64,000 bases of DNA, from assembly GCA_964550035.1 (NCBI GenBank), contig CAZJVU010000003.1, positions 65,383 to 129,382 on the forward strand. Reading direction: 5' to 3'. The translations under genes were made by a program, and so were the position numbers. Origin of the DNA: an uncultured Candidatus Saccharibacteria bacterium (GTDB lineage: Bacteria; Patescibacteriota; Saccharimonadia; Saccharimonadales; EFPC-124). Within the stretch, counting starts at the first letter, position 1, and every line of letters begins with the position of its first letter. This document shows, piece after piece, positions 29,816 through 38,197 of this stretch. Below the pieces are notes generated by a model. The model searched no databases. It saw only the letters and a program-made list of their open reading frames with translations, and had not been told where the DNA came from.

Positions 29816-30877
29816 TTATCCGATAACCGCAGGGACAAGCGGATATGGAATCGACGAGCCAACAACCGGCGGCTCTTCGTACGCTCCGCGAGCTAGCCCT
29901 AGTCGCGCAATTCTGTTAATCATCTCCTCGTAACCTAAGCCAATGTTCAGCTCGCAGGCCTTCGGGAAGGAGCCGTATCCGCTGATGAGGCTCGGTAGCA
30001 AGTTGGCTTCGAGGAAATGCGCTTCACCAAACTCGTCTAGCCGAATGTCAATCCGCCCGTAGTCTTCCCCACCTAAAGCATGAAACACGCCAACAGCGAG
30101 GGCGCATATACGTGCCTTGAGTGCCTGGTCAGTTACCATGCTGACGACCTCTGTGTTTGATGATTTCACTTCTGCACTCAGAAGGCGTGACCCATTATCA
30201 TCCTGCGCGGCAACGAGTTCGAGTGGCATGGCTATATATTCAGCCGTTGGCTCGTCTTTGAGGATGGCCACGCTAAACTCGCGGCCGGATAAGTACTTCT
30301 CTATGAGTGCATCAGAATCGAGATCGGTAAAGATCGATGCTATTTTTGACTGCAACGCTGGGAAGTTACGCACAACCGAATTACTGTCTATACCCAAACC
30401 ACCGCCTCTATTCGTGGGCTTAACGAACAATGGATAATCAAATACTGAGTCTTCGGCAATTGGAGCCTCACCAACAGTCGCCACCATGTACTGCGATGTC
30501 TTCAGGCCTGATTCCAGCACGCGCCGCTTGGCACGTGGTTTATCCAGCTCGACATTGTGAGCTTCATGGCCGGAGCCCGTGTAGGCAATCCCGTGGCTGC
30601 GGAGGTAGTGAGCTAACCAGATTTTTTGAGGATCCTGCAGCCCCAAGTGTAGATTGCGCGGAATGAACTTCATGCCCAGAAACACCAGGTCTGGCTTTTT
30701 GCGAACCAGCTCAGCGAGATCATCCATGTCATTGACGATGGTGATGCCCACGCGTGTGTAGCGCTTTGTAAGGACAGCAAGAATAGCATCGCGCGACTCC
30801 TTGCTCATGGAGCTCAGACTGACGATGGTTGAGGAAACAATTTCAATATGCTTATCGATTTTCATTTTACTGGGCAC
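29816..30877 (-). CDS. ATP-grasp ligase, D-Ala-D-Ala ligase-like
   Basis: DYPLFVKPTNRGGGLGI..., EKYLSGREFSVAIL, GRIDIRLDEFGEAHFLEANLLPSL (Ddl-type C-terminal ATP-grasp); atypical N-terminus. Confidence 0.78.
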   Translation of the reverse strand: MPSKMKIDKHIEIVSSTIVSLSSMSKESRDAILAVLTKRYTRVGITIVNDMDDLAELVRKKPDLVFLGMKFIPRNLHLGLQDPQKIWLAHYLRSHGIAYTGSGHEAHNVELDKPRAKRRVLESGLKTSQYMVATVGEAPIAEDSVFDYPLFVKPTNRGGGLGIDSNSVVRNFPALQSKIASIFTDLDSDALIEKYLSGREFSVAILKDEPTAEYIAMPLELVAAQDDNGSRLLSAEVKSSNTEVVSMVTDQALKARICALAVGVFHALGGEDYGRIDIRLDEFGEAHFLEANLLPSLISGYGSFPKACELNIGLGYEEMINRIARLGLARGAYEEPPVVGSSIPYPLVPAVIG

Positions 30878-31096
30878 TCAGAGGTCGGCCGTGCGTTGGG
30901 TCGCTTCGGCTGCCTAAATTATTAGTTAGTATCTCAGCATTAATATTGTCTGACCGCGATACTAGGAAGCCGAAGAAGGGTTCGTAAAGATTACGGAGAG
31001 GTTATAGAAACCACATGAGTATCTTTAGTCTATCACAAAAAACACTATTATAATACTCCTACGTATTTATCAAGCGTGATTCGCTTGTCTCTAGAC

Positions 31097-32272
31097 TTAG
31101 CTATATATGTGCTCACGGGTGAGCGGAGCGTCGTTTTGCGGACCTTTTGTAAACACATACTGCGATAAATCGAGTTGCCCATATCGGAAGCTCGAAGCCG
31201 AACATGCGAGCCATGCATGCCACATACGATAAAACTTCTCATCAAACATCTTTTCGATTTGTGGTTTGTGCTGCTCGTAACGCCGCATCCATTCCTCCAA
31301 GGTCATGGCGTAGTGAATGCGAAGGTTTTCGTAATCGACCAGTCGGAAATTATGATTCGGGAGCGCTTTGACAATCTCTCGATTCGAAGGAATATAACCG
31401 CCCGGGAAAATGTACTTATCGATCCACGGGTCATTAGGCTGCTCGGTCTGCTGGGTTATGCTATGGAGCACGGAAAGGCCGTTCGGTTTTAAGAGTTGGT
31501 CAACCGCCTTGTAGTAGTTATAGTGATTGCCCTTGCCGACATGCTCGAACATGCCAACGCTGACGATACGGTCGAACTGCAGGCCGCGCTTTGGCAGGTC
31601 TTGGTAATTAGCGAGCTCGAAGGTGATCTTATCTGCCACGCCGGCCTTTTTGGCCATGGCGGTTGCGTAGGCGAGCTGTTCTTTACTGAGGGTGACACCG
31701 TGTCCAGTCACGCCATATTTTTTGGCAGTGGTTATGAGTAGCGTCCCCCACCCCGATCCAATATCCAGCAGGGTCTGTCCTTTGCTAAGTTGGAGCTTTT
31801 TCAGAATGTGCTGAACCTTTTGCTCCTGTGCGGTTTCCAAGGAATCCTTTGGCGTGCGGAAGTAAGCGCAGCTATACGTCATGCTCTTGTCGAGCCACAG
31901 TTTGTAAAAATCATTGCCAATATCGTAGTGATGGGCAATATATGAGCGCTGTTTCTTTGTGACATTTTTGCGAAGCCGTGTCAGCGATACGAGTTTGTTG
32001 AGCCCAGCAAATGCCTCCTGGTTTTCTGCCAAGAGCTGGACCGGACCTTCGAGGTCGCCCTCGACCTCGATAAGGCCTTCGGCGTACGACTCGCCAAACC
32101 CAAGCGATAGGTTTTTTAAAATTCGCCGAATAGCCTTGGGGCTTTTTATATGCAGGTGGTAGTAAGGTTTCTCTGGGCCAAACGTGCAGGTATCTCCGTC
32201 CCAGTAGGTTACGCGGACTCCCCCGTGTTTGATGTGTCCAAGGATTGCATTAAGGAGATTTTTTTCTATCAT
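31097..32272 (-). CDS. cfa: Cyclopropane-fatty-acyl-phospholipid synthase family methyltransferase
   Basis: CMAS family: SAM motif LLDIGSGWGTL, FDRIVSVGMFEHVG; start taken at MIEKNLL (32272). The in-frame extension to 32401 is judged non-coding. Confidence 0.88.
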   Translation of the reverse strand: MIEKNLLNAILGHIKHGGVRVTYWDGDTCTFGPEKPYYHLHIKSPKAIRRILKNLSLGFGESYAEGLIEVEGDLEGPVQLLAENQEAFAGLNKLVSLTRLRKNVTKKQRSYIAHHYDIGNDFYKLWLDKSMTYSCAYFRTPKDSLETAQEQKVQHILKKLQLSKGQTLLDIGSGWGTLLITTAKKYGVTGHGVTLSKEQLAYATAMAKKAGVADKITFELANYQDLPKRGLQFDRIVSVGMFEHVGKGNHYNYYKAVDQLLKPNGLSVLHSITQQTEQPNDPWIDKYIFPGGYIPSNREIVKALPNHNFRLVDYENLRIHYAMTLEEWMRRYEQHKPQIEKMFDEKFYRMWHAWLACSASSFRYGQLDLSQYVFTKGPQNDAPLTREHIYS

Positions 32273-32454
32273 ACTGAAATCATACTGCAAATGGGCACTC
32301 TGCGTCACTCCCGCCTGAGCTTGTCGACAGCTTGCAGCACTTCGCCAGGTCGGTCGGGTGCGCTCAGCCGTAAAGTCCGTCACCAGCACCAGACAGAGCA
32401 TCTGCCCGCCAGACTAGCAGTTTGGGCTAATGGTTCGAGGTCTTTTCTTGCGCT

Positions 32455-32509
32455 TATCGTTTCGTCCTTGACGGGACTCATCAGAATGACGAACAAGTCA
32501 TTGACGATA
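32455..32509 (-). ncRNA. Type III hammerhead self-cleaving ribozyme
   Basis: Minus strand: UAUCGUC|AAUGAC-UUGUUC-GUCAUU-CUGAUGA-GUCC-CGUCAA-GGAC-GAA-ACGAUA. Complete conserved core, three stems, GUC cleavage triplet. Confidence 0.88.
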
Positions 32510-32519
32510 GTCAGCCCGG

Positions 32520-32552
32520 GGGTGACCTGCGGCACAGGCCGGCAGGTCACCC
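32520..32552 (-). terminator. GC-rich hairpin 3' of gene 32559-32900
   Basis: gggtgacctgc / gcaggtcaccc, 11-bp stem; 10 nt upstream (in RNA sense) of the hammerhead. Confidence 0.6.
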
Positions 32553-32558
32553 TTTTCA

Positions 32559-32900
32559 TCATGCGAACTTCCGCAGGGCTTTGGCCATCTCTTTGTCCAT
32601 CGTGGACTCCGAGTTGGTCAGCTTCTCGATGAGAGCCGCCCAGGCCAAGGGGTCGCGGGTGGAACCCAGAGTGGCGTGGCGAAGCGCCATCTCCATGTCG
32701 GCGGCGGAAGCGCTTCTGGTGCGGCTAGAGAGCGCCTTAGCGAAGGCCTCGAACTGGGCCTTGCAGGCGAGAAGTTCTCCCCCGACCTCGAAGTCGAGAT
32801 TGATGTCCTCGCACCGCTGGCACAGCTCCTTCAGCTGCAGCATGCCCGCCGAAGCCTTCAGGCCGCGGGCGAAGAGGCTGAGCAGAGTGACGTCGGTCAT
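32559..32900 (-). CDS. Hypothetical helical protein (GC-rich orphan)
   Basis: 113 aa; own TTGACT-17-TATAAT promoter; AAAGG SD. Confidence 0.55.
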   Translation of the reverse strand: MTDVTLLSLFARGLKASAGMLQLKELCQRCEDINLDFEVGGELLACKAQFEAFAKALSSRTRSASAADMEMALRHATLGSTRDPLAWAALIEKLTNSESTMDKEMAKALRKFA

Positions 32901-32975
32901 GAGACACTACCTTTCACATGATTGGGCTGTTAAGGTGTACCCAGGAAAAGTGTTACTACCCCGAATACAACGAAT

Positions 32976-33004
32976 ATTATATCATTTCTAAGTAAATAAG
33001 TCAA
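32976..33004 (-). promoter_or_regulatory. Sigma70-type promoter for 32559-32900
   Basis: Minus strand TTGACT-17 nt-TATAAT (extended TGaTATAAT). Confidence 0.6.
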
Positions 33005-33847: not shown

Positions 33848-33876
33848 TTGACATAATAATATTTTAATGCTACAGT
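33848..33876 (+). promoter_or_regulatory. Sigma70-type promoter for 33913-34164
   Basis: TTGACA-17 nt-TACAGT followed by ATATAT. Confidence 0.6.
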
Positions 33877-33912
33877 ATATATCAAGCTGAACTACTCACC
33901 GAGGAGAGCATC

Positions 33913-34164
33913 ATGAGCGGTTTCAAGGTGGTCAACACCACCCGCAAGGGCAACCTGGTCGCGCTCGAGCTCCGGCACGACGGCCAGATCCCGACGATCG
34001 TGCGGGAGCACCTGCGCGGGCACGACGACGTCCTGCGCGTGGTTCCGGGCAACAACCCCACCAAGCTCTTCGTCCTCACGGCCGTCTCCGGCCACGCGAG
34101 GAACAACGAGCAGCGAGCGGCGTTCGTCGACAGCCTCAGCCAGACGGCCAACGCCGCGGCGTAA
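33913..34164 (+). CDS. Hypothetical protein (GC-rich orphan)
   Basis: 83 aa; GAGGAGAG SD; imperfect long GC hairpin downstream. Confidence 0.5.
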   Translation: MSGFKVVNTTRKGNLVALELRHDGQIPTIVREHLRGHDDVLRVVPGNNPTKLFVLTAVSGHARNNEQRAAFVDSLSQTANAAA

Positions 34165-34280
34165 CAGCCTCGCGCCCCAGCACACGGAAAGCTCCGTGCC
34201 TGCGGGCGCGGGGCTTTTCTCATCTAGTATCCCAATGAAGCGTCCCGGCCAGTTACCCGGCCGGGGTCGCTCCTGTATGC

Positions 34281-34721
34281 TCAGTAGATGTACTTGAAGG
34301 TGATGGCTGGCGCCGTTCGGGATGCAACGCGGTTCCAGCCGCTCTGGCCATCCATCTCGGTGATGATCACGAGGGCGTAGTCGATAGTGACGTCTTCGAC
34401 GATGGCAACTTGACCGTTCGTACCGCGATCGGTCCAGGCGATAGCGCCCTTTCGAGGCGCATCGCCAACTGCGTAGCCGGATTGCTGAGCGCGGTCGTAC
34501 CAGTACCTGGCGTCGCCCCAATTGGGCGGCACCTTCCGGCGCGATGCGACGTAGTAGGTACCAGAGCCGTACTCGTAGCCGTTGGCAGCATCGGAGCCCA
34601 CCGTCGTCGTGGTCGATGGGGCATTTGTGGTTGGCTGTACCCCCGAAGGTTGCGCCGAACATGCGGGTACGACCAGAACAAGTGCGACCATGCACCGTAA
34701 GAACAAACGTTTCGCCCTCAT
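34281..34721 (-). CDS. Lipoprotein with CHAP-like domain lacking the catalytic Cys and His
   Basis: Lipobox LVVPAC|S. CHAP-like layout: YGSGTYYVASRR (expected GQCTWYV) ... P.KGAIAW...NGQVAIVEDV (expected GHVAIVE). Confidence 0.65.
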   Translation of the reverse strand: MRAKRLFLRCMVALVLVVPACSAQPSGVQPTTNAPSTTTTVGSDAANGYEYGSGTYYVASRRKVPPNWGDARYWYDRAQQSGYAVGDAPRKGAIAWTDRGTNGQVAIVEDVTIDYALVIITEMDGQSGWNRVASRTAPAITFKYIY

Positions 34722-34896
34722 TACACCATCCTCACGTAGCGGAAACAGGAGCGTCACTTATTATACCGCCCATCACAACAAGGCAGCTATCATAAGTCTA
34801 TGCGCAACGGCGCGCTTGCATGCGTCACCTCCTATAACAGTACATGCAAATAGGGGCCCGAAATTCGAGCCCCTATTTGCATTATCGTTTTACTTT

Positions 34897-35576: not shown

Positions 35577-35676
35577 TGCCTTCGTCACTTACTCGGCAGA
35601 ATTGTTGCATAAACGTTATAATATTTTATAATTATAGACAATCAGTTTGCCTGATTCCTCAACTTGGGAAGGTGAC

Positions 35677-36696
35677 ATGAAGCACCCGACGGTTTTGTTC
35701 TTGGACAACACGAGCGCTGACAACTTGGCGCTGGCGCTGGCGGCGACCCGGCCTTCGTCCTTGTTGGACGTGAAGGCTATTTTCGTCACGGGGCGTGCAG
35801 CGCACACCGACCCCAGTGCCTCGATCGAAGACCGAGAAGAAAACTTTTCCAACTACATCCACTTCCTCAACGCCGCGCGCATGCTGGAGTTCCTCCAGAG
35901 TGCCGGTCGCCCGGACATCCCCATCATCATGGGGCGGCGCGTGCAGCGAACCGGAATTCGTACCGTCATCCCCCACCACATCCACGCAGACGAGAAGATC
36001 TACGACCTGTGGGACTCCTGGGGCAAAGCCAGAATTCACGAGTTCGCTGACGGCGTCCAGTACCTTCGTCACCTCAAGGCGAAGAAGCTCCTCGCGCTCG
36101 TCGGCGGACCGCTCACCGAAGTGGCGTGGATCCTGCAGCACGCGCCCGACGTCGCAGCCAAGTTCGGCACGATGCTCATCCAGGGAGGCGACTTCGCCAC
36201 CGACGAGTCTAGCAACCTCATCGGCGGCAAGGGCAACTCGTTCAACATCGCGTGTGACCCGAAGGCGGCGAACGTCGCGCTGAAAATGCATCGTGGGAAA
36301 GCCATCTTCCTCCCGTCAAACATGACCAAGCAGCGCGAACTCGGCTTCGCCACGCCCGACGAGATCGCGGCGCTGGGGGTGTACCGCCGGCTCGTCGACG
36401 TCTACCGGGTGCACTACGAGCACTCCGCCAAGCGGCGGGGAACCTCGTTGTTCATCCACGACCTGGGGTTGGTCATGCTCGCCGAGCAGCTCATTCGACG
36501 CAAGCGAGGCTTCCCCTACCAGCTGGAGCCGATCATGGTCCTGGAGGTACCCTTCCAGGCGCCAAAACCCGGTCAGCCCGAACGTCGCGGCACGGTCGTG
36601 GTCAAGCCGGTGCGGGTCAGCACGAACCGTTTCAGGGTGGTGTGGCAAGACACAAGGGACTACCGCACCCGCGTGGCTGCGTATCTCCGAAGTTGA
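35677..36696 (+). CDS. Inosine-uridine nucleoside hydrolase-like protein with degenerate N-terminal Asp motif
   Basis: VLFLDNTSADNLALALA (versus DxDxxxDD), GGPLTEVAWILQHAPDV...MLIQGG, NFNIACDPKAANV, IHDLGLVM; SD GGGAAGGTGA before ATG 35677. Confidence 0.6.
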   Translation: MKHPTVLFLDNTSADNLALALAATRPSSLLDVKAIFVTGRAAHTDPSASIEDREENFSNYIHFLNAARMLEFLQSAGRPDIPIIMGRRVQRTGIRTVIPHHIHADEKIYDLWDSWGKARIHEFADGVQYLRHLKAKKLLALVGGPLTEVAWILQHAPDVAAKFGTMLIQGGDFATDESSNLIGGKGNSFNIACDPKAANVALKMHRGKAIFLPSNMTKQRELGFATPDEIAALGVYRRLVDVYRVHYEHSAKRRGTSLFIHDLGLVMLAEQLIRRKRGFPYQLEPIMVLEVPFQAPKPGQPERRGTVVVKPVRVSTNRFRVVWQDTRDYRTRVAAYLRS

Positions 36697-36700
36697 GGAA

Positions 36701-36742
36701 AGGCCCTCCCGTGGTTGCCATCGTGGCGACCCGGGAGGGCCT
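36701..36742 (+). terminator. GC-rich hairpin
   Basis: aggccctcccg / cgggagggcct, 11-bp stem followed by TTTTCCTTT. Confidence 0.65.
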
Positions 36743-36778
36743 TTTCCTTTCCTACAGAGGGTAGTGTGGGTAGTAGCG

Positions 36779-38197
36779 CTACTCGGCCATCATAGGTTCT
36801 GCTGCTGCCTTGCGCGGCATCAGGAACACGAACGGAAGGCTGACTACCGTGAGAGCCAGGACGACGATGAGAGCGATCTCCATCGCGCTGACAAATCCAG
36901 CGGTTGCGGCCTGGAAAAATACCGAGGCAACTGCAGCCGAACCAATTGCTGACGAAAGCTGCTGAATCGAGCTGAACGAACCGCTCGCGCTCCCCGCCTC
37001 GTCCGGCTTGGCGTCGCCCAGCGCGATGGTTGGAATCGCCGCAAACGAAAACCCAATACCGATACCGATGATAAAGAACACCGGCACCAGCGCCCAAAGG
37101 TTGAGGTGCATTCCAAAGGAAGCAACGAGCGCCAGCAGCCCAACACAGCCAATGATATTTATCCCGAGGCCGATGAACACGAGCTTGCGCCCGAGCTTGG
37201 TCACGAGACCACCCATCGCAGCAAACCCGGCAGCAACGAGGCCCAAAGTGAGCGGCATCATGCTCAGCGAGGTATCCCTTGCGTTAACATGCAGCCCTAC
37301 TTGCAGGAACAGCGACAGCACAAAGAGCAACCCCGCCCCCGCAGCAACCGCCACAAGACACACGACCAGACCAGAGGTAAACCCGCGGTTATGGAAGAGT
37401 GACGGCTTGATGAGTGGATGATCCGCAGTTCGTTGACGATACGCAAAGGCGATGAACGCCAGAAGCCCGATGATGATCGAAACGATCGGCACGGCGCTCC
37501 AGCCATTGGTCGAACCTTCGATCAAGCCATACAGCAGCCCGAACATCGTGACACCAAGGATGCCCGACGCCCAGCCATCGATAACGATGGAGCGATCGCC
37601 CTTATCATCGCGCGGCAAAAGCTTCACTGCCATGATTATTCCCACGACACCAAGCACGAGGTTGATGAGGAAGATCGGGCGCCATGTCAGCCCAAACCAA
37701 TTGGCGCTAATGATGAACCCGGCAATGACCGGGCCAAGCACGCTCGAGATACCGAGCATTGGGCCAAACAACCCGAACGCCTTACCGAGCATTTCCTTAT
37801 CGAATGCTTTTGTCATGATCGCCATACCTTGTGGAATGAGCAAGGCACCGAATGCACCCTGCGCAATGCGCGCCGCGATAAGCACCGCCGGGTCAGGCGA
37901 AAATCCTGCGACCGCTGAGGCGAGCGTGAAGCCGCCCATGCCCAGCAGGAACAGCTTGCGCTGACCAAATTTATCGCCGAGCCGTCCGCCGATAACCAGC
38001 AGAACACCCATAGCGAGCATGTATGCTGGGCCCAACCACTTGATCAAGCTCACGCCGCCGCCCAGGTCATGCGCAATAGTCGGCGCGGCGATGTTGGTAA
38101 TGGTGCTGTCGATGACATCCAGTGCGTCGGCCAGAATAACCAGCCCAAGGATCGCCCACAGCCGGGGCTTTGAAAGTTTGTTGATTACCTTTTCCAT
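36779..38197 (-). CDS. MFS transporter, DHA2 (EmrB/QacA-like, 14 TMS)
   Basis: 472 aa; motif A GGRLGDKFGQRK; about 14 hydrophobic spans. Confidence 0.88.
   Translation of the reverse strand: MEKVINKLSKPRLWAILGLVILADALDVIDSTITNIAAPTIAHDLGGGVSLIKWLGPAYMLAMGVLLVIGGRLGDKFGQRKLFLLGMGGFTLASAVAGFSPDPAVLIAARIAQGAFGALLIPQGMAIMTKAFDKEMLGKAFGLFGPMLGISSVLGPVIAGFIISANWFGLTWRPIFLINLVLGVVGIIMAVKLLPRDDKGDRSIVIDGWASGILGVTMFGLLYGLIEGSTNGWSAVPIVSIIIGLLAFIAFAYRQRTADHPLIKPSLFHNRGFTSGLVVCLVAVAAGAGLLFVLSLFLQVGLHVNARDTSLSMMPLTLGLVAAGFAAMGGLVTKLGRKLVFIGLGINIIGCVGLLALVASFGMHLNLWALVPVFFIIGIGIGFSFAAIPTIALGDAKPDEAGSASGSFSSIQQLSSAIGSAAVASVFFQAATAGFVSAMEIALIVVLALTVVSLPFVFLMPRKAAAEPMMAE

Follow-up and report, generated by a model that had tools for sequence, protein, structure and literature searches.

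What bacterial hammerhead ribozymes do has been a question since 2010-2011. The minus strand of the 64,000-nucleotide (64 kb) stretch of DNA analysed here, which we call the window, carries a hammerhead motif between a small open reading frame (ORF) and cfa, a gene for cyclopropane-fatty-acyl-phospholipid synthase. This locus raises the question of whether the motif has the features of a genuine ribozyme, to which of the two neighbouring genes it belongs, and what its cleavage might do to their transcripts.

The hammerhead motif and its model scores

The minus-strand RNA from 32509 to 32455 reads 5'-UAUCGUC/AAUGAC-UUGUUC-GUCAUU-CUGAUGA-GUCC-CGUCAA-GGAC-GAA-ACGAUA-3', in which the slash marks the predicted cut. 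Stem III is formed by 32509-32504 with 32460-32455; it has 6 bp, including the A15.1 (32460):U16.1 (32504) pair, and is open-ended. The cleavage triplet G-U-C17 lies at 32505-32503 and follows the NUH rule. C17 is placed at 32503, and cleavage is predicted between 32503 and 32502. The stem I hairpin (32502-32485) consists of 6 bp (32502-32497 with 32490-32485) and a 6-nt loop, and the stem II hairpin (32477-32464) consists of 4 bp, GUCC/GGAC, and a loop of 6 nt. The core CUGAUGA (C3-A9, 32484-32478) and the GAA trinucleotide (G12 A13 A14, 32463-32461) were aligned to the invariant positions of the model. The core-adjacent pairs A1.1:U2.1 (32502:32485) and G10.1:C11.1 (32477:32464) are also present. 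The rules by which hammerheads have been accepted are a NUH triplet, the A15.1:U16.1 pair and core-adjacent pairs in all three stems (Perreault et al. 2011, PMC3088659). The topology is type III, since loops cap stems I and II and stem III is open. The window copy shows every testable sequence and structure feature of a type III hammerhead, with the Rfam score cut-off as the one exception.

The Rfam model RF00008 (Hammerhead_3, clan CL00010) matched the motif over its full length with 39.2 bits, corresponding to an E-value of 2.8e-7 in a search of 301 nt and 5.9e-5 in a search of the whole 64 kb. This score is lower than the gathering score of 48.5 bits, which is an operational cut-off for annotation and no biochemical criterion. 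At gathering thresholds, Rfam reported only a single tRNA in the whole window, and the hammerhead appeared when permissive thresholds were used. We also used R1, a covariance model constructed from 88 other bacterial type III hammerheads (alignment A1), from which the window copy was left out. R1 gave 55.1 bits and an E-value of 3.5e-12. Neither R1 nor RF00008 detected a further hammerhead in the 64 kb window, indicating a single copy, and no second self-cleaving ribozyme family matched in the whole 64 kb at E-values up to 0.1. The sequence CTGATGA occurs ten times in the window compared with 8.3 expected occurrences, so the heptamer alone is uninformative. The flanking helices are decisive, and they are found at one site only.

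An earlier note on this DNA had described this segment from its letters. Its RNA sequence agreed base for base with ours, and its reading of the segment as a complete type III motif with an invariant core was supported by the full-length RF00008 match, by the R1 score and by the conserved homologous copies described below. The predicted cleavage position, the intergenic location and the statement that no other CUGAUGA in the window has the flanking helices were likewise reproduced. The note had proposed an Rfam covariance-model search as a check; the full-length match and its whole-window E-value spoke for the claim, and the bit score fell short of the gathering score. We conclude that 32509..32455 on the minus strand is a genuine-looking canonical type III hammerhead motif, for which self-cleavage is predicted.

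The small-gene cassette

The hammerhead segment is intergenic and located between the stop codon of a 113-aa ORF (32559) and the start codon of cfa (32272). The ORF itself (32559..32900, minus strand) encodes a small all-helical protein with five predicted helices and a mean AlphaFold pLDDT of 80. No significant match for this protein was obtained in Pfam, PHROGs, PADLOC, NCBIfam, a PDB sequence profile search, or Foldseek searches against PDB and BFVD. The family is rare; a search of 1.84 billion proteins gave ten representatives with E-values of 1e-3 or lower. A promoter-like site, TTGACT-17-TATAAT with TG, lies ahead of the ORF at 32976..33004 (minus strand) and matches the consensus at 11 of 12 positions. 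Between this site and the ORF, the alignment of five upstream regions revealed a conserved 5'UTR block, CCUUAACAGCCCAAUCAUG (32917..32935, minus strand), in which ACAGCCC (32930-32924) is complementary to GGGCUG(U) in the spacer downstream of the ORF.

The 3'UTR of the 113-aa ORF contains a GC-rich hairpin, GGGUGACCUGC...GCAGGUCACCC (32520..32552, minus strand), with 11+3 bp, a folding energy of −30.4 kcal/mol and a z-score of about −5. The sequence directly 3' of the hairpin, CCGGGCUGAC, has no U-tract; thus, the hairpin is not an intrinsic (Rho-independent) terminator. A scan of the minus strand between the 113-aa ORF and cfa gave no terminator-like site. The spacer between hairpin and hammerhead (32510..32519, minus strand) forms, together with the last base of the hairpin, the block CCCGGGCUG (32520-32512). 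This block is the same in all seven module sequences aligned, with protein identities down to 28%.

To collect related loci, we scanned metagenomes for copies with the stem I of the window hammerhead. Four loci shared the whole 3' module, and a profile search added the rest. Six distinct versions of the cassette were thus distinguished, namely the window version and those of L251, L253, L254, L255 and the L256 type. The encoded homologues of the 113-aa protein are 58-28% identical, and each is trailed by the hairpin and the hammerhead. In all six versions, a type III hammerhead is located 48-54 nt after the stop codon and scores 53-57 bits with R1. The −35 and extended −10 elements of the promoter-like site are kept in L251, L253 and L255. 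The DNA of the window and that of L251 are similar (75% over 501 nt) from the 5'UTR through the ORF (58% identity at the protein level). This similarity stops exactly at the 3' end of the ribozyme, after which a different gene follows.

The seven-sequence module alignment showed the same pattern. The hairpin, spacer and ribozyme are conserved, and the sequences diverge immediately past stem III. When the module was evaluated with its explicit structure, 96% of the cells were paired compared with 21-50% when the pairing partners were slid. Compensatory changes were observed at four pairs, of which three are two-sided changes in the GC hairpin and one is a change from U:A to C:G in stem III. Since the ribozyme stems are almost invariant within this subfamily, covariation in them is limited to this one stem III pair. 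Loops I and II vary among the module sequences, and loop II is different in every homologue. The ribozyme motif as a whole is about 90% conserved across the cassette homologues.

Because the promoter-like site and the 5'UTR block are conserved among the homologues, these elements form one complete unit. The cassette of about 550 nt comprises, in this order, the putative promoter, the conserved 5'UTR, the 113-aa ORF, the GC hairpin, the invariant spacer and, last, the predicted hammerhead.

The genes behind the cassette are unrelated to each other. The window cassette is followed by cfa and that of L251 by a 394-aa ORF. Convergent genes come next in two contexts, a DEAD-box helicase gene in the L256 type and in L253 a DUF998 gene, the 3' end of which is 6 nt from the ribozyme. 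In the window, cfa (31097..32272, minus strand; 391 aa, Pfam CMAS 5e-96) is a neighbour outside the cassette. Its closest named homologues are encoded in Candidatus Saccharimonadales / Patescibacteria MAGs with up to 72% identity and are about 391 aa long, indicating that the true start codon of cfa is M44 at 32272. The start codon is therefore 182 nt from the ribozyme.

We considered whether the ribozyme could be a 5'-leader processing element for cfa, similar to an insulator, whose structured 5'-OH end would set the stability or translation of the cfa mRNA. The ribozyme is co-oriented with cfa, lies this short distance ahead of the start codon and is not separated from it by a terminator, and co-oriented downstream genes are common in the wider class described in the next section. 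However, five cfa orthologues (seven loci, 89-72% identity) have no hammerhead and are preceded by other upstream genes, so we rejected the idea that the hammerhead is conserved with cfa. The ribozyme trails the small ORF in six of six family members, the downstream gene is convergent in two contexts, and the sequence similarity ends at the ribozyme 3' end. In addition, a consensus scan identified a promoter-like site for cfa itself at 32308..32279 (minus strand), which would give a leaderless cfa mRNA. We therefore regard a leader function for cfa as unlikely. As judged from its inheritance, the predicted ribozyme belongs to the upstream small-gene family and is independent of the downstream gene. 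The association with the upstream small gene, and not with the downstream cfa mRNA, had escaped the earlier note.

The other neighbours are a D-Ala-D-Ala-ligase-like protein, RibD_C, an MFS transporter, AraC regulators and the cell-wall hydrolases LGFP, CHAP and a lysozyme-like protein. A prophage context was also considered and rejected, since the ORFs examined with PHROG and Pfam included no integrase, capsid, terminase or phage structural gene.

Compact type III hammerheads in other genomes and the competing fold

We scanned one genome per bacterial or archaeal species with the pattern CTGATGAGTCC-N(4-8)-GGACGAAAC and obtained at least 120 loci. Type III topology was assigned by a simple test, which required a stem I hairpin of 6-8 bp, GUCC-AAAA/GAAA-GGAC and a stem III of 4-8 bp. 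Among the matches listed, 108 of 133 were of type III according to this test, and one of the 133 is the window copy itself (Logan contig L001). When a test for type I was added, the genome matches listed (about 132) were divided into 106 of type III, 14 of type I and 12 of neither type. Among the at least 120 loci, 83 of those listed are from named Patescibacteria (CPR), including Saccharibacteria, Paceibacteria, Parcubacteria and Berkelbacteria. Class members were found, for example, in Nanosynbacter MAGs (L032, L096). A further 25 of those listed are from other named taxa, which hold most of the matches that are not type III. The strong impression from the matches listed is that compact type III copies are concentrated in CPR genomes. 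The same pattern in viral contigs of IMG/VR yielded 84 type I, 32 type III and 13 other copies among the matches listed. The viral copies of type III share this compact design.

Bacterial hammerheads of types I and III, located between genes, have been in the literature since 2010, and hundreds of bacterial copies, many of them close to prophage genes, since 2011 (PMC6155905, PMC3088659). The earlier note called a type III copy on a chromosome and within an mRNA context unusual. This view is therefore unsupported; the 106-108 type III copies among the matches listed (about 132) speak against it as well, as does the predominance among the loci of Patescibacteria, to which the window belongs.

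The structure of the class was evaluated using the alignment of 88 copies without the window copy. In this alignment, 94% of the cells were paired compared with 32-48% in slid controls, and compensatory changes were found in six of six stem I pairs and four of six stem III pairs; stem II is fixed by the search pattern, and only copies with 4 bp or more in both stem I and stem III had been admitted. Two loop positions are near-invariant in the class, and the window copy has both: loop I begins with U, and loop II ends with A. Across 18 CPR loci with about 25 pattern matches, only six hammerheads reached the RF00008 gathering score, at 48.8-52.1 bits. Thus, the Rfam cut-off under-calls the compact class and appears to miss most of it.

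The flanks of the 108 type III copies were compared by folding. The mean minimum free energy of 60 nt was −17.0 kcal/mol upstream and −8.7 kcal/mol downstream of the ribozyme, and folds with z < −2 were found for 61% of the upstream flanks versus 23% of the downstream flanks. The upstream hairpin ended 0-2 nt from the ribozyme in 72 of 96 copies compared with 36 of 87 in the control. A strong hairpin ahead of the ribozyme is thus a property of the class.

With respect to their neighbouring genes, the ribozymes lie on the sense strand. By crude, greedy ORF calls, both neighbours were co-oriented with the ribozyme in 33 type III copies and both were anti-oriented in eight, and the mixed-orientation cases were split 13 to 13. 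Therefore, orientation alone cannot favour a general 3'-end role over a 5'-leader role. Two further ideas gained no support. A general association of CPR hammerheads with small upstream ORFs was at the level of the noisy ORF background (p = 0.34). A larger mobile element around the ribozyme was not found either; most pairs from the same genome are alike only over the ribozyme of about 50 nt, and the cassette has no terminal inverted repeats.

Folding of the 55-mer gave a minimum free energy structure different from the hammerhead. The competing fold has −17.1 kcal/mol and the hammerhead −12.2 kcal/mol, a gap of 4.9 kcal/mol in energy models without tertiary contacts or co-transcriptional folding. 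The competing fold pairs the strand of the cleavage site with the core and thereby sequesters the core. Class members have a median gap of 0.85 kcal/mol, and only 2% of them show a gap of at least 4 kcal/mol. Cleavage of the window copy may thus be slow or conditional.

A conditional ribozyme would be one whose folding is tuned by the competing fold, or by pairing of ACAGCCC with GGGCUG(U) beside stem III, and which is regulated, for example, by translation of the small ORF. The energy gap, extreme for the class, is consistent with this idea. RNAalifold also prefers pairing of UCGUCA with UGAUGA in seven of seven module sequences, and the invariant complementary 5' and 3' blocks lie at fixed positions. 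In the most divergent member, their complementarity extends over 9 nt, which one of 300 shuffles also attained. However, the UCGUCA/UGAUGA columns are invariant, and covariation therefore neither supports nor refutes their pairing. As loop II differs in every homologue, the loop II part of the competing fold of the window is not conserved. Furthermore, the 5'-3' complementarity is no longer than in shuffled sequences at five of six loci. Conditional control of this kind is, in our judgement, very unlikely.

Tertiary contacts between loops I and II, which permit rapid cleavage at physiological Mg2+, were also considered. A stem I that is 2 bp longer than stem II has been linked to pseudoknots (Perreault et al., PMC3088659). 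A Watson-Crick pseudoknot of loop I with loop II (UUG:CAA in the window) was not supported, since the best run had a mean of 3.08 compared with 2.95 in shuffled sequences, and the pairing is not kept in homologues.

The stability of the competing fold, together with the score under the Rfam gathering cut-off, could also be read as the sign of an inactive relic or a chance look-alike with no present function. This is hardly probable at all. Every invariant position is intact, and the E-value of 3.5e-12 was obtained with a class model to which the window copy had not contributed. The motif has stayed about 90% conserved while the proteins fell to 28% identity, and the flank diverges right past stem III. 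The compensatory change from U:A to C:G in stem III likewise argues for maintenance of the hammerhead structure.

Possible role and comparison with known systems

The locus and the class-wide hairpin pattern suggest a 3'-end-forming or insulating role for the predicted ribozyme. Its likeliest role, which we consider probable, is co-transcriptional self-cleavage that would give the small mRNA a hairpin-protected 3' end and uncouple downstream transcription. RNA polymerase starting at the cassette promoter would pass through the GC hairpin, because the hairpin is no intrinsic terminator. In the emerging ribozyme, stems I and II would fold locally, and stem III would then close. The RNA would cut itself after C17. 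The mRNA of the small ORF would be released with the hairpin and about 17 further nt at its 3' end, which would carry a 2',3'-cyclic phosphate and would be both defined and exonuclease-resistant. The downstream RNA, here a 230-nt leader and cfa, would be severed and would start with a 5'-OH at the stem I hairpin. Transcription of the ribozyme, its cleavage in vivo and the effect of this cleavage are what we infer for the locus.

Hammerheads have been proposed to cut long transcripts into gene-length mRNAs, and native polycistronic fragments have been shown to cleave (Perreault et al., PMC3088659). Prokaryotic hammerheads often flank small, non-conserved ORFs, according to a 2017 review (PMC6155905). 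The mechanism outlined above would fit both the proposal and the remark.

Cleavage could alternatively serve termination or insulation. The 5'-OH RNA would then be degraded by an RNase J-type 5'-3' exonuclease towards the polymerase, which would shield downstream or convergent genes. The 5'-OH product of the glmS ribozyme is a substrate of RNase J1 in Bacillus subtilis. The strong promoter-like site of the cassette is followed by no U-tract terminator, in L253 a convergent gene ends 6 nt from the ribozyme, and a convergent gene also comes next in the L256 type, all of which is consistent with such shielding. However, this explanation overlaps with 3'-end formation; both can hold, and they are inseparable by sequence alone, which likewise cannot rank a protected 3' end, uncoupling from cfa and a torpedo-like stop of readthrough. 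As a separate explanation, we regard termination by exonuclease as doubtful, and 3'-end formation remains our preferred reading.

Taken alone, the window copy is one more bacterial hammerhead, missed by the Rfam cut-off. The hairpin and the compact type III hammerhead could together be a widespread, termination-independent module for mRNA 3'-end formation and insulation, a 'ribozyme terminator', in CPR bacteria and in phages that have the same design; we put this forward tentatively, as a possibility that is less likely than its opposite. If true, it would provide a testable answer on the function of bacterial hammerheads, with CPR genomes as their main cellular reservoir and the window cassette as a clean example. 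The locus is an unusually clean handle on this question, as the ribozyme and one small gene are inherited together, with a fixed spacing between stop codon and ribozyme, a conserved hairpin before the ribozyme and an unrelated, sometimes convergent gene behind it. The papers searchable in full text mention neither the apparent concentration of compact type III hammerheads in CPR genomes nor the directly adjoining upstream hairpin or the small-gene cassette, which by itself does not prove that these are unpublished.

The window copy shares with the intergenic hammerheads of bacteria and phages (de la Pena & Garcia-Robles 2010; PMC3088659, PMC6155905) the canonical core, the location on the sense strand between genes, the adjacency to a small, poorly conserved ORF and the proposed transcript-cutting role. 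It differs from them in that it has no integrase or phage genes nearby, is single and not one of several flanking a gene, and is carried by a CPR chromosome (Saccharimonadia-like). It also has a conserved upstream hairpin and a fixed distance from the stop codon of one gene family. It is not part of an array like those associated with prophages (Perreault et al. 2011), since there is one hammerhead in 64 kb. The copies represented by RF00008, which are from plant viroids, satellite RNAs and plant genomes, have the same core, type III topology and GUCC/GGAC stem II consensus. In contrast, the window copy is encoded in bacterial DNA and is associated neither with a rolling-circle RNA replicon nor with tandem or paired ribozymes. 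It is also distinct from viroid-like and retrozyme circular RNAs, which are recognised by two ribozymes or tandem repeats on either side of a unit that can be excised and circularised, whereas the window copy is single.

A further comparison is with the compact hammerheads of Patescibacteria. The window copy and this class share a stem I of 6-8 bp, a short loop I starting with U, a 4-bp GUCC/GGAC stem II, a loop II ending with A, a short stem III and a strong upstream hairpin. Loop II of the window copy has 6 nt (CGUCAA), whereas the class has AAAA or GAAA, and its stem III strand is AUCGUC, whereas that of the class is usually CUGUC. The hairpin of the window is 10 nt from the ribozyme compared with 0-2 nt in the class, and the competing fold is unusually stable.

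A synthetic counterpart is RiboJ, a ribozyme insulator derived from the type III hammerhead of sTRSV, which is placed in the 5'UTR with a hairpin downstream. Both elements are of type III and lie between parts of transcription units, where self-cleavage would uncouple the upstream RNA from the downstream cistron. In contrast to RiboJ, the window element is natural, is located in a 3'UTR and has its hairpin upstream.

Sequence blocks, composition and neighbours of the small-ORF cassette

We compared the 5' and 3' untranslated parts of the small-ORF cassette in the window and in five loci carrying its homologues (L251, L253, L254, L255, and L256). The 5'UTR block ACAGCCC (window 32924-32930, minus strand), located approximately 30 nt ahead of the start codon, and the spacer GGGCUG(U) between the hairpin and the ribozyme (window 32512-32518, minus strand) were both invariant. 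The 5'UTR block is the reverse complement of the spacer, and the two occupy the same positions in the window and all five loci. In most of the cassette loci the match was 6-7 nt long, a length that shuffled sequences reached equally well; in the most divergent member it extended to 9 nt, which was reached by 1 of 300 shuffles. Judged from these sequences, the two blocks could form a long-range 5'-3' pairing within the small mRNA, or could represent a binding site present in two copies.

The search with Rfam models returned a weak match to the togavirus frameshift element at window 32518-32554 on the plus strand (18.8 bits, E 0.3). This was rejected as a family match, as it is the GC hairpin of the cassette read on the opposite strand.

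The cassette (window 32500-32950) had a higher GC content (0.62-0.63) than its downstream neighbour gene cfa and the other flank of that gene (0.43-0.54; 30850-32350). Going by this composition, the cassette may have been gained independently of cfa. Further GC-rich blocks were found in the window at 33850-34750 and 35650-36850. In L253, the small ORF is preceded at a distance of approximately 2 kb by an IS-type transposase gene (HTH_Tnp_1 and rve domains; positions 859-2063) and followed, again after approximately 2 kb, by a Fic-domain gene; neither type of gene was seen close to the cassette copy in the window.

The longest ORF of cfa (434 aa; window 31097-32401, minus strand) is over-extended: the homologues are approximately 391 aa long, which places the true start codon (ATG) at 32272. 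Ending 7 nt ahead of this codon is a weak promoter-like site, GTGACG-18-TATGAT (32279-32308, minus strand), and cfa mRNA transcribed from this candidate promoter would be leaderless.

Compact type III hammerheads in Patescibacteria genomes

Bacterial and archaeal genomes were scanned with a pattern comprising the hammerhead core and stem II. Among the matches listed, compact type III hammerheads appeared heavily concentrated in genomes of Patescibacteria (CPR): of the 120 loci listed, 83 belonged to named CPR lineages. Topology classed 106-108 of the approximately 132 matches listed as type III. The compact design consists of a stem I of 6-8 bp, a stem II of GUCC-AAAA/GAAA-GGAC, and a short stem III. 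Our full-text literature search found no paper linking hammerheads with CPR, Patescibacteria, or Saccharibacteria.

When the 60 nt upstream were folded, most type III copies in these loci had a strong hairpin immediately 5' of the ribozyme, the mean MFE being -17.0 kcal/mol upstream versus -8.7 kcal/mol downstream. In 72 of 96 copies, 0-2 nt separated the end of the hairpin from stem III. As the 5' strand of stem III is frequently U-rich (consensus uucuGUC), the hairpin and this strand together can look terminator-like.

Repeated copies and viral hammerheads

Copies within single genomes were compared in L107, L105, L117/L118, L003, L032/L096, and L017/L037. They were often 95-98% identical across the ribozyme only (approximately 50 nt, including stem I) with unrelated flanks, which hints that the ribozyme unit alone is copied or homogenised within genomes; a few pairs shared longer duplicated flanks. 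The Blastocatellia MAG locus L044 contains four hammerhead cores on one strand within 1.6 kb (positions 329, 634, 1137, and 1917); all four share one 8-nt stem II loop sequence, and none was classed as type III by a simple topology test. The group could represent an array of hammerheads, tandem or repeat-associated, in a bacterium outside the CPR.

The pattern of hammerhead core and stem II was likewise frequent in IMG/VR viral contigs, with at least 120 loci (L129-L248). In these contigs type I prevailed, with 84 type I versus 32 type III among the matches listed. The viral type III copies share the compact design of the CPR type III copies, and therefore some of them may derive from phages of CPR bacteria.
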